Positions 29,243-38,683 of a stretch of DNA of 39,722 nt are shown piece by piece. The stretch comes from a virus (lineage: Duplodnaviria; Heunggongvirae; Uroviricota; Caudoviricetes). Position 1 is the stretch's first letter, and each line of letters begins with the position of its first letter. The notes beneath the pieces are model-generated. The model made no database searches. It saw only the letters and a list, made by a program, of their open reading frames with translations, and was not told where the DNA came from. The stretch is taken from the IMG/VR virus record IMGVR_UViG_2541047869_000003, positions 1-39,722 of that record; one strand, 5' to 3'. The position numbers and the translations under genes were made by a program.

Positions 29243-29542
29243 TCAGAATTCCATCTGGATTTGTTCAGAACGCTCGGTCTTGCACACCGGGCGTTTTTTA
29301 TTGGTGAGTCCATCAAGCGCATACTTAAAAGCCCTGCTAATCGGACTGATGTCTGATGCCATTCCGAAAGCACACAAGACCGAAGCAATAAATCTCCAGT
29401 CCGTTCTGCTTATCTTCGATTCATGACAGCCAATCATCTTTGCCAGACCGCGCTGTGTAAGCGTTGACAGGTTGATGAGTAAATCTGTTTCTGCACGATC
29501 AACGTCGCGCTGTGATAGTTTGCTGTAACTTGTTTGTTCCAT
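29243..29542 (-). CDS. cII: CII-family transcriptional activator (P22 c1 equivalent)
   Basis: 99 aa; HTH region and C-terminus ...LTNKKRPVCKTERSEQIQMEF matching the lambda CII tail (TNKKRPAATERSEQIQMEF) from memory. Confidence 0.9.
   Translation of the reverse strand: MEQTSYSKLSQRDVDRAETDLLINLSTLTQRGLAKMIGCHESKISRTDWRFIASVLCAFGMASDISPISRAFKYALDGLTNKKRPVCKTERSEQIQMEF
29271..29299 (+). terminator. oop-like antisense RNA terminator inside the 3' end of cII
   Basis: Plus strand (antisense to cII): stem CGCTCGG / CCGGGCG (one G-U), 9-nt loop, then T6. Same placement as the lambda oop terminator. Confidence 0.4.
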
Positions 29543-29606
29543 TTCTTAAGATTTCCATAGGTAAATAATCACTAACACTCATCTTTCGATGAGTGCTTAA
29601 TTAGTT

Positions 29607-29641
29607 ACCGCGTTGTCGGCGGTGCAGATTGATAAAGAGCG
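29607..29641 (-). promoter_or_regulatory. nutR (boxA + boxB) downstream of cro
   Basis: Minus strand: boxA CGCTCTTTATC followed by hairpin ACCGC-CGACAAC-GCGGT with a GACAA loop like the nutL boxB; starts ~8 nt after the cro stop. Confidence 0.5.
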
Positions 29642-29648
29642 GTGTTAC

Positions 29649-29876
29649 TTATGCAGCCAGAAGGTTCTTTTTGCTTATTTCAAGCATTTCGCTTGCTTGA
29701 TATTTGCCACCAGAAATCTCTTCGATTTTTGATGCGTATTTAGTTTTCCCAAAAAACTCAGTCTTAGGGAGGAAGCCGTTTTTGAGCCACTTATAGACAG
29801 CCCTTTCGCTAACTCCACAAGCCTTCGCAACTTCAGGGATGCCGACACCTTTAATCGGCTCATCAAGATTTTGCAT
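29649..29876 (-). CDS. cro: Cro-like repressor (HTH)
   Basis: 75 aa, divergent from the repressor gene; HTH segment GIPEVAKACGVSERAVYKWLKNG. Confidence 0.75.
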   Translation of the reverse strand: MQNLDEPIKGVGIPEVAKACGVSERAVYKWLKNGFLPKTEFFGKTKYASKIEEISGGKYQASEMLEISKKNLLAA

Positions 29877-29954
29877 AGGAATATCCTTTTTCGTACTTTC
29901 AGTACGTATTATGGTTGAACTGAAAGTTTTTGCAAGTGCTTTAGTATCGTACTC
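29877..29954. promoter_or_regulatory. OR operator cluster with divergent PR and PRM
   Basis: 78-bp cro-cI intergenic region with related inverted repeats CGTACtttcaGTACG (29892-29906), TGAACtgaaaGTTTT (29916-29930) and CGTACtcatgGTTCA (29948-29962, overlapping the cI ATG); half-site about CGTAC/GTTCG. Confidence 0.55.
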
Positions 29955-30662
29955 ATGGTTCAGAATGAAAAAGTGCGCAAAGAATTCGCCCAGCGGCTAG
30001 CGCAAGCCTGTAAAGAAGCTGGTCTTGATGAACATGGTAGGGGGATGGCCATAGCCCGTGCCCTTTCTCTTTCGTCCAAAGGCGTTAGCAAATGGTTTAA
30101 TGCTGAGTCTTTACCGCGTCAGGAAAAAATGAATGCGCTTGCGAAATTTCTAAACGTTGATGTTGTTTGGCTTCAGCACGGCACTTCGTTAAATGGAGCG
30201 AATGATGAAGATACTCTTTCATTTGTTGGCAAATTAAAAAAAGGGTTAGTGCGCGTGGTTGGTGAGGCAATTCTTGGTGTTGATGGTGCCATCGAGATGA
30301 CCGAAGAGCGCGATGGGTGGCTCAAAATTTATAGCGATGATCCAGATGCCTTTGGTCTTCGTGTGAAAGGAGACAGCATGTGGCCCAGAATAAAATCAGG
30401 AGAATATGTACTCATTGAGCCTAACACCAAAGTATTCCCGGGTGATGAGGTGTTTGTCAGAACCATCGAAGGACACAACATGATCAAGATTCTTGGCTAT
30501 GACAGAGATGGAGAATACCAGTTTACAAGCATCAACCAAGACCACAGACCAATAACGTTGCCTTATCATCAAGTAGCAAAGGTGGAGTATGTGGCTGGTA
30601 TTCTGAAGCAGTCCCGCCATCTGGATGACATCGAGGCAAGGGAGTGGCTGAAAAGTTCGTGA
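29955..30662 (+). CDS. cI: Prophage repressor, CI/C2-type (HTH plus LexA-like S24 autopeptidase domain)
   Basis: 235 aa; N-terminal HTH; C-terminal domain with Ala-Gly cleavage region and GDSMWP catalytic Ser motif plus downstream Lys. Confidence 0.9.
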   Translation: MVQNEKVRKEFAQRLAQACKEAGLDEHGRGMAIARALSLSSKGVSKWFNAESLPRQEKMNALAKFLNVDVVWLQHGTSLNGANDEDTLSFVGKLKKGLVRVVGEAILGVDGAIEMTEERDGWLKIYSDDPDAFGLRVKGDSMWPRIKSGEYVLIEPNTKVFPGDEVFVRTIEGHNMIKILGYDRDGEYQFTSINQDHRPITLPYHQVAKVEYVAGILKQSRHLDDIEAREWLKSS

Positions 30663-30719
30663 CTTCATCGTCACATAGCTGGTAACCAATGGCCTGAAGA
30701 GACGTTTGGATGATGAAAG

Positions 30720-30745
30720 GTCGCACAGAAGTGCGGCCTTTTTTA
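30720..30745 (+). terminator. Intrinsic terminator after the repressor gene
   Basis: 8-bp stem GGTCGCAC / GTGCGGCC (one G-U), AGAA loop, T6 tail. Confidence 0.7.
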
Positions 30746-30773
30746 TTGGTAGTGATCCACACATTGTGCTAAC

Positions 30774-30958
30774 GCATTAATTAGCATTAATATTTAGCTT
30801 AATCACAGAATAGCTAAAAATATTTTAGCGATAAATATATACATATCAATGAGATAAATAAAAATGATGCATTTTGTAGCTAATTGATGATTTAGCTACC
30901 ATTGCCCTGCTTATTTGAAATAAGCTATCATCACCATAACCAAGCATATGGGGGATTT
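30774..30958 (+). promoter_or_regulatory. AT-rich putative promoter/regulatory region of the cI-N cassette gene
   Basis: Perfect 8-bp inverted repeat GTAGCTAA-N8-TTAGCTAC (30876-30899), tandem GCATTAAT-like repeats (30774-30810), imperfect palindrome ATAGCTAAAAATATTTTAGCGAT; candidate sigma-70 elements TTGCCC-18-TATCAT (about 30902-30931); Shine-Dalgarno GGGGGA before the ATG. Confidence 0.4.
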
Positions 30959-31894
30959 ATGGATACTAAAAAACGAGCTCAAAAAGCAGCAGCAATGTCA
31001 GCAATCGTTAGATCAGCTCCAAAGCCAACTCACACAGGATTAATGGCGACAGGTGTTTCTTGTGCTGTTTTGCCTGATGGTCGCAGAGTGGTTTCAATGC
31101 AAGGTGCAAATGGATTGGCAGAAACATTCGGTGTATCTGTTGGCTCAAAAATGCCAAGATGGGTACCAAATGGGAAGCCAGGTCAATTACCATATGTTCT
31201 CCAAGCAAATGAGCTTCAGCCATATATTTCTGATGAACTAAGAGAAGCGCTAGCAGAACCAATTGTATATAAAAATACATCAGGTGCAGGTGTCGCTTAT
31301 GGCATTGACGTTACTATGCTACCAGCGCTTTGCGAGGCATGGACAGATGCTGAGAGGGATGGAGCCCTACGACAAAAGCATCACTTGAATACAGCTGCAA
31401 AAGCCAAAGCGCTCTATAAAGCTCTAGCTAGAGTTGGCGCCGTTGCGCTCGTTGATGAAGCGACTGGATACCAAAAAGAACGAGAGCGCGATGAACTGGC
31501 AAAACTCCTTGAGCAATTCATCGCTAAAGAAATGCGACCATGGGTAAGCACATATCCGCCAGAATTCTTTGAGGAGTTATGTAGACTCAGAGGAGTCCCA
31601 TTCAAAGCAAACATGCGGAGACCGCAATACTTTGGTCATCTTGTGAATAACATAACTTATGACCGCATGGCACCAGAGCTAAGAAATGCGCTAAAGGAAG
31701 AAAGAGCAAAAGCAAAAAAGGCAGGTGCAAAAATGCATCAGTTTCTATCAGAGGGAACTGGATATGGTCTTCTTCAAAAGAGACTTACAGGGGTAACAAC
31801 ACTCATGCAAGCAAGCGATACTTATGAAGATTTCATCCAATTGCTTGATAAGGTACACCCTCTACTAACCGTAGAAGATATTGACGCAGAATAA
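30959..31894 (+). CDS. Uncharacterized 311-aa protein in the cI-N accessory slot (lambda rexAB position)
   Basis: Start taken at MDTKKRAQ (good Shine-Dalgarno), not at the upstream in-frame Met of the ORF track. Lower GC by eye and AGA/TTA codons; flanked by intrinsic terminators. No confident family assignment from memory (possibly P63C-like, unverified). Confidence 0.6.
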   Translation: MDTKKRAQKAAAMSAIVRSAPKPTHTGLMATGVSCAVLPDGRRVVSMQGANGLAETFGVSVGSKMPRWVPNGKPGQLPYVLQANELQPYISDELREALAEPIVYKNTSGAGVAYGIDVTMLPALCEAWTDAERDGALRQKHHLNTAAKAKALYKALARVGAVALVDEATGYQKERERDELAKLLEQFIAKEMRPWVSTYPPEFFEELCRLRGVPFKANMRRPQYFGHLVNNITYDRMAPELRNALKEERAKAKKAGAKMHQFLSEGTGYGLLQKRLTGVTTLMQASDTYEDFIQLLDKVHPLLTVEDIDAE

Positions 31895-31903
31895 CTTTAT
31901 TGC

Positions 31904-31929
31904 CCCGGCCTCAGCGCCGGGTTTTCTTT
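31904..31929 (+). terminator. Intrinsic terminator after the cassette gene
   Basis: Stem CCCGGC / GCCGGG, 6-nt loop, followed by TTTTCTTT. Confidence 0.7.
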
Positions 31930-32096
31930 GCCTCACGATCGCCCTCCCATATTTAATAGCCGCAAATGTGGTAAACCGCGAACCAACTCACCAGCAATAA
32001 CCACTCCAACTACAGACCAATCTGCAGCATTTACAAAAATAAATTTCCTTATATATCAAAATCATATCTCGCAGCATTAATAAATCACAAAAATTT

Positions 32097-32135
32097 CGTA
32101 CCAATAGTTCTTGATAATGTCGAACTATTGGTTCA
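32097..32135. promoter_or_regulatory. OL operators overlapping putative PL
   Basis: CGTACcaataGTTCT (32097-32111) and CGAACtattgGTTCA (32121-32135) share half-sites with the OR sites; the two contain an 11-bp perfect inverted repeat ACCAATAGTTC / GAACTATTGGT. Candidate PL: TTGATA-17-CATTAT. Confidence 0.45.
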
Positions 32136-32185
32136 TTATTGTCACATCAGCAGGACGCTGGAAGCCAAACGGAAAAGATTGGCAG

Positions 32186-32219
32186 GCTCTTTAACTTCGA
32201 TGGGGCGCTGACAAAGCGC
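32186..32219 (+). promoter_or_regulatory. nutL (boxA + boxB)
   Basis: boxA GCTCTTTAA (32186-32194) then boxB hairpin GCGCT-GACAA-AGCGC (32205-32219), matching the P22-type boxB with GACAA loop as I recall it; ~120 nt upstream of N. Confidence 0.65.
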
Positions 32220-32338
32220 AAACAGATACCAAACGAGATGGGTTTGGCGGTGATGTGAATTGCAGCTGCAACGACAGCAACCAGAAGATCAGCATCTGGC
32301 GCATCACCACCAAAGCCATTTCACATGAGGGAAACATC

Positions 32339-32647
32339 ATGACGGTAATCGTGTACGGAAAATCAACATTCGCAGGAAATGCCAAAACTCGCCGTCATGA
32401 GCGGCGCAGAAAACTGGCTATCGAGCGTGATTCCATCTGCAACATCATCGATTCGATCTTCGGAACAGACAGCGAGGAACCAGTTCAGAAAGGCACGAGA
32501 AAGCGTTTAAGCCTTTCTGAAAAAGCAATATCACTCGGCAACATTCGTAACCAAAATACCGACGAATGCAGTGGAAGTATTTGCCTGCCAAACGTAGCCA
32601 TTTACGCGGCAGGCTACCGGAAATCCAAACAACTGACAGCGAGGTAA
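32339..32647 (+). CDS. N: Antiterminator N (P22 gene 24-type)
   Basis: 102 aa from the internal Met; arginine-rich RNA-binding motif GNAKTRRHERRRKLAIER near the N-terminus; Shine-Dalgarno GAGGGA. Confidence 0.85.
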   Translation: MTVIVYGKSTFAGNAKTRRHERRRKLAIERDSICNIIDSIFGTDSEEPVQKGTRKRLSLSEKAISLGNIRNQNTDECSGSICLPNVAIYAAGYRKSKQLTAR

Positions 32648-32668
32648 CGATCCCCCGCCGTCGAGGAA

Positions 32669-33208
32669 CTAAATTAGCTCATCAGCTTTACCAGCAAAGC
32701 GCATATAACACTCATGGAACCAGACGTCAGGTATAACAAATTTCTCTTTACCTGACGCGCTGTAAGTCACACCTGAGCGATGGAGAAGACCTTTTCTCAT
32801 AAGAGATAAAGCGACCGGATCGCCGTGCTTAAGTACGATTTTGTTATTTGCCATAACAGCAAATGCTAAAACCTCTTTTTCCTGAATACTCAGAGAATTG
32901 AACAGGCGCTCAGTCTCCACAATTACTTTAGCCTCATCTCTCTTACTGAGATATTTTTTATATCTGTCTGAAGATGCCAGAAATATAAACTCCATCACCC
33001 TGTTCAGAACATAACTGATACACAAAAGCATTGCGTAATACATCCAGTGATCTGGAAGTATTTCAGGATTCCTTATATCTACCCACTCTTTAATTGATGC
33101 TGGGGTGATTATTATCAAGGCAATTAAAATAATAAGCATATGAATTAACTGTTGTAGCGTAAGACCACGCAGGAAGAAACGTAATAGTTCCTGCCACCAG
33201 TTACTCAT
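32669..33208 (-). CDS. sieB: Superinfection exclusion protein B (SieB-like membrane protein)
   Basis: 179 aa; N-terminal transmembrane helices (LIHMLIILIALIIITP, YYAMLLCISYVL); next to N, opposite orientation to PL transcription, as for sieB in P22 and lambda. Confidence 0.7.
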   Translation of the reverse strand: MSNWWQELLRFFLRGLTLQQLIHMLIILIALIIITPASIKEWVDIRNPEILPDHWMYYAMLLCISYVLNRVMEFIFLASSDRYKKYLSKRDEAKVIVETERLFNSLSIQEKEVLAFAVMANNKIVLKHGDPVALSLMRKGLLHRSGVTYSASGKEKFVIPDVWFHECYMRFAGKADELI

Positions 33209-33417
33209 CGGTGAATCTCCATCATTCTCTCTGTAGGGGTGAATAGAGTTTATCCGATTTCTCGCTGTAGGGGTACACGAGAACCACCGAGCCTGATGTG
33301 GTTAAAAGACAGGCACAATCTTTACTACCGCAAGCCACGCAGTGAAATGGGTGTGACTTGTGTTGGTCGCCAGAAAATGAAATTAGGCAGCAAACCACTT
33401 ATTTGAGAGGAATTAAT

Positions 33418-34041
33418 ATGTCATCAATCCGCTTAACTACGAGAATGAAAGAGGAAATCGCTCGTAACGCTTTAATTAAGTCTGGGGTTTTCACTGAACT
33501 TGAAGAAGTAACAAAGTTAAAGAACCAGCTTGCACTTGACGCCAGAGTTATTGCGTTTGGCGGTAAAAAGAAAACTGAGGAAGTGGATCAGTTATCATCC
33601 AAGTTGGTAGCTATAAGTGAAGAACTTGAAAAGATGGGATGTTCATTTTACTCATACGATGTTCGTTCTACTTCAATTTATCTGACTGTATCTGGCAGAA
33701 GGGTTGGATGGCATTCATATGGGAAAGACGGCAACGGCGAAGATATATTGCTCCCTACTCCAACCAAATATAAATGCATGTTTGACGCAGAACACGAAAT
33801 AACAAAAAGGTTTGATGAAATCTGCGCATTGCAACAAAACCTTGAAGCCTTGAAAAAGGATATCGAATCAAATGTATGGGCTGCTTTGAACTCAGTCACA
33901 ACAGTTAAGCGACTTATTGAAGTTTGGCCTGAAAGCAAAGAATTGCTACCAAAAGAAGCAGATAAAGCAAGTACAGCACTTCCTGCTTTACGGGTAGAAG
34001 ATTTGAATAAGATGATTGGACTTCCTTCCGAGGCCGCATAG
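33418..34041 (+). CDS. Hypothetical protein (207 aa) between sieB and cIII
   Basis: Start taken at MSSIRLTTRMKEEIARNA; AT-rich; no family recognised. Confidence 0.5.
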   Translation: MSSIRLTTRMKEEIARNALIKSGVFTELEEVTKLKNQLALDARVIAFGGKKKTEEVDQLSSKLVAISEELEKMGCSFYSYDVRSTSIYLTVSGRRVGWHSYGKDGNGEDILLPTPTKYKCMFDAEHEITKRFDEICALQQNLEALKKDIESNVWAALNSVTTVKRLIEVWPESKELLPKEADKASTALPALRVEDLNKMIGLPSEAA

Positions 34042-37819: not shown

Positions 37820-38683
37820 ATGACCACTATTACCAGAGAACAGGCACAGAAAATTATTGAAGCAGCCGATGAGGTTATTAGTGCGCTGGCCGGAACTAAT
37901 GAGGATGTTAACCCTGATAGCAATGACATGCTACGTCTGTGGGATGACCTGAATGACCGTCACGCGCCCCCTGAAGTTGTGCGTGAGCTGGCACGAATTG
38001 CACTGGCATCACTGGGAGCAGAACCAGTTGCTTATATTTTCAAACATCCGGCCGGAAAATTATTCTGGGCTTTGACGGATGAAAGCAATAAAGATCAATC
38101 GGACGTTATTCCTGTTTATGCTGCCTCACCTGCACCGATAGCGTCGGAGGCCATTGAAAACGCTATTGAATACATCCGCAGTATCGCTTTTCACATCGAT
38201 GAAGACGATTACCACGGCAAACATATTGCGTATTTCATGCGACAAGCATTGGCCTGGCTGGAAGGGCATTCATGCAGCGACGAAAGACTGGGTAAAGCCG
38301 AGAATCAACCAGTACGCGGCAACCAGGCTGCCGAATCCAATCGCGGTAATGAGTGGACTGGCAATCCTGATATTGATAACGCCATCATCATGCTCGACCG
38401 CATAGATACGGCGGAAAGTTGCGATGATGACCGTATTGAGGCCGTTAAGGCTGTGTTGCGTAGACTGGCTGGCAACTCTCCGGTAATTCCGGATGGTTGG
38501 ATAAGCTGTAGTGAGCGAATGCCCCCTCAAGATGATTGGATTTTAATTTATTCAAAGCACGGCGAGTATATGGCAGGACAGGTGCAAGGGGAATACGTGG
38601 AGTTGAGCGACGGCACTTTATCGTGGTTAGGGAACGTCTTGTTCTGGATGACGTTGCCAGAACCTCCGAAGGGGGCGAAATGA
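37820..38683 (+). CDS. Hypothetical protein with DUF551-like C-terminal domain
   Basis: 287 aa; C-terminus WISCSERMPPQDDWILIYSKHGEYMAG...LSWLGNVLFWMTLPEPPK is typical of the prophage DUF551 family from memory. Confidence 0.5.
   Translation: MTTITREQAQKIIEAADEVISALAGTNEDVNPDSNDMLRLWDDLNDRHAPPEVVRELARIALASLGAEPVAYIFKHPAGKLFWALTDESNKDQSDVIPVYAASPAPIASEAIENAIEYIRSIAFHIDEDDYHGKHIAYFMRQALAWLEGHSCSDERLGKAENQPVRGNQAAESNRGNEWTGNPDIDNAIIMLDRIDTAESCDDDRIEAVKAVLRRLAGNSPVIPDGWISCSERMPPQDDWILIYSKHGEYMAGQVQGEYVELSDGTLSWLGNVLFWMTLPEPPKGAK

Follow-up and report, generated by a model that had tools for sequence, protein, structure and literature searches.

Does a perfect 11-bp inverted repeat in the lambdoid immunity region of a P22-like phage constitute a regulatory element in its own right, or is it a consequence of the operators within which it lies? 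The repeat consists of the arms ACCAATAGTTC (32100-32110) and GAACTATTGGT (32122-32132), which are exact reverse complements separated by the 11-bp spacer TTGATAATGTC, as the initial annotation had described, and it cannot be extended past 11 bp, the T at 32099 standing opposite the T at 32133. The window, i.e., the whole stretch of viral DNA analysed (39,722 nucleotides, or 39.7 kb), contains two perfect inverted repeats with arms of 11 bp or longer and a spacer no longer than 30 bp; the other one, with the 11-bp arms TTCAGAAAGGC (32484-32494) and GCCTTTCTGAA (32511-32521) and a 16-bp spacer, is located within the N coding sequence. First-order Markov simulations gave a mean of 0.42 such repeats per window and at least one in 32% of the simulations, and on these figures we rejected the notion that the repeat is striking by bare statistics. 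It is non-random through its placement and content, not its bare length.

The arms fall within two 15-bp operators, OL2 (CGTACCAATAGTTCT, 32097-32111) and OL1 (CGAACTATTGGTTCA, 32121-32135), which follow one another in the window in the order TTT CGTACCAATAGTTCT TGATAATGT CGAACTATTGGTTCA TTATTGTCACATCAGCAGGACGC, with a centre-to-centre distance of 24 bp. The left arm corresponds to positions 4-14 of OL2 and the right arm to positions 2-12 of OL1. Each arm had been described at first as half of a site; it actually covers most of a whole operator (11 of 15 bp), namely one complete half-site, the operator centre of five bases and two further bases from the opposite half-site. The OL sites share with the OR sites the common form C-G-W-A-C-N5-G-T-W-C-R, three copies of which are present between cro and cI: OR1 (CGTACTTTCAGTACG, 29892-29906), OR2 (TGAACTGAAAGTTTT, 29916-29930), which is situated between the -35 and -10 elements of PR, and OR3 (CGTACTCATGGTTCA, 29948-29962), which overlaps the cI ATG at 29955. 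OR1 and OR2 also form a perfect inverted repeat, of 9 bp (ACTTTCAGT, 29895-29903; ACTGAAAGT, 29919-29927), which runs through their central bases, and like OL2 and OL1 their centres are 24 bp apart. Only five 15-mers in the 39.7-kb window match the GWAC-N5-GTWC core at 8 of 8 positions, and four of these are OR or OL sites, including both OL2 and OL1. The sole such match outside OR and OL, GGAACGTCTTGTTCT (38631-38645), is probably fortuitous, the chance expectation being about 2.4 per window. Within 31930-32260, no third OL site scoring at least 7 of 8 core positions was found besides OL2 and OL1; phage 933W is likewise described as being without OL3 (Chakraborty et al. 2018, PMC5977221).

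Both operators are superimposed on a sigma-70-like PL promoter on the plus strand (32111-32139), which has a -35 element TTGATA (32111-32116), a 17-bp spacer and a -10 element CATTAT (32134-32139) and scored 9 of 12 in a consensus scan. Transcription is predicted to start on the plus strand at about 32146 (ATCAGCAGGACGC) by homology to the 5' nucleotide of the annotated P22 PL RNA, and the sequence from 32145 on can be aligned with the PL leaders of P22, lambda and phage 21. OL2 covers -49 to -35 and abuts the -35 hexamer; OL1 covers -25 to -11, occupies the spacer between the -35 and -10 elements and touches the latter; and the centre of the dyad, 32116, lies inside the -35 hexamer. Downstream on the plus strand are nutL (32186-32219), which is composed of boxA GCTCTTTAA (32186-32194) and a P22-type boxB GCGCTGACAAAGCGC (32205-32219) and aligns with the annotated P22 nutL, and the first gene of the PL operon, which codes for an N antiterminator of the P22 gp24 type (32339-32647; Pfam N_peptide PF25694, E 1e-39).

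The immunity region as a whole is lambdoid and is written opposite to the lambda convention, the order being cII (minus strand, PF05269), cro (minus), cI (plus), a P63C-domain ORF (plus), a hairpin (31904-31921), the repeat, the nutL leader, N (plus) and, beyond N, sieB (minus). The cro product (29649-29876, minus strand) is an HTH protein encoded on the predicted PR transcript, and its relatives are annotated as 'Cro of bacteriophage BP-933W'. The cI repressor (29955-30662, plus strand) has HTH_3 and Peptidase_S24 domains. The P63C-domain ORF (311 aa; 30959-31894, plus strand; PF10546, E 7e-23) has terminator-like hairpins on either side, at 30715-30742 and 31904-31921, the second of which is followed by a T-run on the plus strand and ends the cI/P63C-ORF unit upstream of OL. 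Among loci of the 933W immunity type (imm933W), cI and OL are about 1.6 to 3.1 kb apart, which marks this slot as a swap site for cargo genes.

The position of the repeat bears on the idea that it acts as a nucleic-acid structure, either as a cruciform in supercoiled DNA or as an RNA hairpin in read-through from the cI operon, and thereby modulates PL or terminates transcription. A single strand of the repeat does fold into an 11-bp stem with a free energy of -8.6 kcal/mol (z = -3.97 against shuffles). However, the repeat is upstream of the PL start and hence absent from the PL transcript, the stem has no T-run after it, the upstream unit is already closed by the strong terminator-like hairpin at 31904-31921, and a scan of 29500-33500 against Rfam gave no match. 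With its A/T-rich stem of 11 bp and its loop of 11 nt, the repeat would also be a poor candidate for a cruciform. Good folding notwithstanding, we set this explanation aside as having a next to negligible probability, given that many relatives carry uncompensated changes at stem positions, as described below.

The identity of the operators became clear from comparison with the Shiga toxin (Stx) phage 933W. The cI protein is identical to the 933W repressor (EDL933-Stx record) at 233 of 235 residues, both differences being Ile/Val exchanges in the C-terminal domain. Residues 30-50 are identical, including the recognition-helix segment GMAIARALSLSSKGVSKWFNA and S41, K42 and K46, the roles of which have been described (PMC3317979). 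A 45-bp OL segment that spans OL2, the -35 element, OL1 and the -10 element (TTCGTACCAATAGTTCTTGATAATGTCGAACTATTGGTTCATTAT; from TTCGTAC to TTCATTAT) is base-for-base the same as that of 933W. In addition, GenBank entry GQ499363.1 ('immunity region; similar to bacteriophage 933W') labels OR1, OR2, OR3, OL2 and OL1 as 'repressor binding site', and their sequences are those of the five sites in the window, the OL features being drawn there as 16-mers with a one-base offset.

The published description of 933W fits the window site by site. Five natural 15-bp, rotationally symmetric sites have been reported, of which OR contains three and OL two (Bullwinkle et al. 2012, PMC3317979). In their half-sites, positions 2-5 are conserved, with G at position 2 save in one half of OR2, A or T at position 3 and invariant A and C at positions 4 and 5, while position 6 is T in seven of the ten half-sites and C in three (PMC3317979). 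The ten half-sites of the window agree with this description in every point. Among the natural 933W sites, OL2 ranks second in strength, and OL1 is of similar strength (PMC3317979). That the locus is an OL region with two operators of the cro-cI type lying symmetrically over PL had been recognized from the beginning. The symmetry is about the -35 element, and all this matches the annotated and published OL2 and OL1 of 933W (PMC3317979). The locus has the cognate cI, 15-bp sites, identity of OL1 and OL2, overlap with PL upstream of nutL and N, and two sites only, as in an imm933W OL pair. Judged by its sequence, the repeat is thus the OL2/OL1 pair already known for 933W-type immunity and annotated in GenBank. 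The imm933W OL element is a common one: of 5,426 complete E. coli genomes, 187 gave a match.

Given that the sites in the window are identical to the characterised ones, cI would be expected to bind OL1 and OL2. In a lysogen, one cI dimer on each site would occlude the -35 and -10 elements of PL and exclude RNA polymerase, so that nutL, N and the early-left operon would remain silent; occlusion of the promoter is the likely mode of PL repression. The two dimers would bind independently, each by its own intrinsic affinity, and RecA-stimulated self-cleavage of cI through its Peptidase_S24 domain would allow PL to fire through nutL into N.

The initial annotation had proposed that the symmetric arrangement could support cooperative or looping repression. 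Cooperativity conflicts with published 933W biochemistry, according to which the repressor is non-cooperative at adjacent sites and occupancy is set by intrinsic affinities (PMC3317979, PMC5977221). Lambda-style cooperative binding of neighbouring dimers by way of their C-terminal domains is thus reported to be lacking in the 933W repressor, and the summary statements to this effect name OR1-OR2 explicitly and otherwise speak of 'adjacent sites' in general (PMC3317979, PMC5977221, PMC3202840). Binding, affinities and non-cooperativity are thus taken here from the literature, to which the present analysis adds the 933W identity of the locus, the architecture of the sites, their overlap with the promoter and the non-conservation of the long repeat. 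As for looping, a repressor-mediated OR-OL loop has reportedly been observed, but the title of the study concerned (Bullwinkle & Koudelka 2011) denies the loop a role in PRM regulation. The OL and PL of phage 933W are reportedly also treated in Tyler, Mills & Friedman 2004 and in Koudelka et al. 2004.

Whether the symmetry is maintained among relatives was addressed by scanning IMG/VR with GTTCTTGATAATNTCGAAC, a pattern in which the inner half-sites and the -35 element are fixed and any base is allowed in the operator centres and outer half-sites. Of the 80 loci retrieved, 75 were true OL regions; five (L048, L053, L058, L060 and L070) were excluded as chance matches, without operators or cI. 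The 75 OL loci comprise 12 distinct 39-bp haplotypes, and wherever the repressor gene was included in the locus, its product was at least 98.3% identical to cI with an identical recognition region. The outer half-sites, although free in the scan pattern, are invariant across the 75 loci, in which variation is confined to operator positions 6-8, to position 1' and to the base between the two sites. Although 51 of the 75 loci carry the perfect 11-bp repeat, these represent only two of the 12 haplotypes, which are the commonest ones. In the remaining 24 loci (ten haplotypes), it is broken by one to three uncompensated central mismatches, as with the OL2 variant CGTACTTATAGTTCT, which was seen in phage Lambda_ev087 as well as in 11 loci, and with OL2 CGTACTTGCAGTTCT paired with OL1 CGAACTATTAGTTCA. 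The initial annotation had looked to conservation of the repeats in phages with the same repressor; what is conserved is the half-sites and the two-site architecture, while the long repeat itself is not. Complementarity of the arms, which a functional long palindrome would keep in relatives having the same binding protein, is therefore not kept, and the 11-bp symmetry adds nothing beyond the presence of two operators. The natural variation falls on positions 6-8 and not on positions 2-5, which agrees with the published specificity map and supplies natural variants for the tuning of affinity.

More distant relatives were collected by scanning GTDB with cI, which yielded prophages of Pectobacterium, Photorhabdus, Cedecea, Dryocola and others with a cI that is 46-76% identical overall and similar in the N-terminal domain. 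In five prophages from other genera of Enterobacterales, the layout is kept, with OL2, 9 bp that include the rest of the -35 element, OL1 and the -10 element in this order and a 24-bp spacing of the operator centres. The number of central bases (out of five) that match in the inverted register is one in Pectobacterium, one in Cedecea, two in Dryocola and four in Photorhabdus.

These comparisons also bear on the view that the 33-bp dyad is one unit, in which the symmetry, including that of the non-contacted centres, has been selected for a symmetric complex over the -35 element, be it two dimers, a tetramer (perhaps within an OR-OL loop) or Cro. The perfect 11-bp symmetry is centred on the -35 element, OR1 and OR2 show the analogous 9-bp inverted match through their centres at the same 24-bp distance, and the Photorhabdus relatives retain an inverted identity of 12 of 15 with different bases. 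In a formal pair count over 17 OL haplotypes, inverted complementarity exceeded that of column shuffles (2 of 500). Related sequences are known, however, to exceed such shuffles without any structure or constraint, and we rejected this excess as proof of a selected palindrome, since relatedness and the palindromic preference of the operator centre, Y-A-W-T-R, explain it. The symmetry is moreover lost in ten of the 12 same-repressor haplotypes, only one or two of the five central bases match in Pectobacterium, Cedecea and Dryocola, and in published work binding to adjacent sites is non-cooperative and occupancy follows from intrinsic affinities alone (PMC3317979, PMC5977221). At OR, the centre of OR2 (TGAAA) is fixed among the relatives, probably owing to its location in the PR spacer, whereas that of OR1 drifts (TTTCA, TTTCG, TTTTA, TATTA), so that the mirror symmetry of OR1 and OR2 is not maintained either. 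We consider it very unlikely that the dyad is a selected unit.

The locus is very probably the OL control region of a 933W-type module, in which PL is silenced by independently bound cI dimers and the 11-bp repeat is a by-product. Both OL sites lie near one palindromic high-affinity consensus, C-G-W-A-C-Y-A-W-T-R-G-T-W-C-G, and any two sites near the same palindromic consensus are largely reverse complements of each other. The operator centres observed (CAATA, TATTG, TAATA and TATTA) conform to the palindromic preference Y-A-W-T-R, so that any two strong sites match by default as complements at positions 7 and 7'. Position 6 tolerates T as well as C, and affinity rises when the consensus C at position 7' is changed to A (PMC3317979). 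A perfect match would need no more than about three coincidences (positions 6, 8 and 6'), the chance of which for two strong sites we estimate from half-site frequencies at about 1 in 8 to 1 in 16.

The same resemblance between the two sites could, in principle, be a relic of the inverted duplication of one operator, which would have given rise to OL2 and OL1. Inverted identity between the two sites of the 933W type (12 of 15) is indeed greater than direct identity (10 of 15), and the perfect haplotypes are the commonest. Such a history is, however, indistinguishable from convergence on a palindromic optimum, function would be unchanged either way, and the more divergent loci L086, L104 and L106 have a greater direct than inverted identity, opposite to what duplication predicts. 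We regard duplication as extremely unlikely to be the source of the central symmetry. It is likewise very doubtful that neighbouring 933W-type operators are preferentially mirror images, weakly contacted centres included, by reason of a genuine constraint that in vitro work with linear DNA has failed to reveal. The mirror-image neighbours are OL2/OL1, OR1/OR2 with its 9-bp inverted match, and the OL pair of Photorhabdus; a constraint of this kind could consist in a symmetric DNA shape around the -35 element, a looped OR-OL tetramer or octamer, or a Cro complex.

With independently bound dimers on two palindrome-like sites as the preferred reading, the locus can be set beside better-known operator regions. 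The operator pairs of lambda have a 24-bp centre-to-centre spacing. As at OL1-OL2 and OR1-OR2 of lambda, adjacent pseudo-palindromic sites 24 bp apart overlap the -35 and -10 elements of an early promoter, the promoter drives nutL and N, and the repressor is a self-cleaving protein with HTH and S24 domains. Unlike lambda, which has three 17-bp sites per operator region with pairwise and long-range cooperativity, the 933W type is reported to be non-cooperative, has 15-bp sites and is without OL3 (PMC3317979, PMC5977221). Among homologues of the N-terminal domain of the 933W repressor, the 434 repressor is the closest whose structure has been characterised (PMC3317979), and in its operators, too, the central bases tune affinity without being strongly specified; 434 differs in that its sites are 14 bp long with an ACAA half-site, each region has three of them, and binding is cooperative. 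The closest counterpart is the OL of 933W with its PL, which shares with the window the nearly identical repressor (233 of 235 residues) and its identical DNA-binding region, the 45-bp OL segment, OR1-OR3 and two rather than three OL sites. The two differ in the cargo between cI and OL (the stk region and other genes in 933W, the P63C-domain ORF here) and in the leader, nutL and N downstream of the promoter, which are of the 933W type there and of the P22 type here. In addition, 933W is an Stx phage, whereas the virion module of the window phage is P22-like (CUS-3/Kapi1/Sf101-like), CUS-3, Kapi1 and Sf101 giving the best matches to the virion half.

The window thus represents a P22-like phage with 933W immunity specificity, having the same repressor, OR sites and OL sites, and on this ground it should be homoimmune with Stx phages of the 933W type. 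It should also share the reported non-cooperative, low-repressor 'hair-trigger' switch of that type (PMC5977221). The repeat itself matters little beyond correct annotation, the feature being already known. No obvious Shine-Dalgarno sequence precedes the cI ATG (29955), which is overlapped by OR3; the 933W repressor mRNA carries a Shine-Dalgarno sequence (PMC5977221). A mosaic joint was found at or just past the PL -10 element: the upstream part (29600-32144; cI, OR and OL) is of the 933W type, and the sequence from about 32145 to 32647 (leader, nutL with its boxB, and N) is of the P22 type, the N of 933W being different. Within this leader, between nutL and the start codon of N, a 21-nt inverted repeat with 86% complementarity is present (32235-32255 and 32302-32322), the position of which we take to be reminiscent of the RNase III-processed hairpin in the N leader of lambda.
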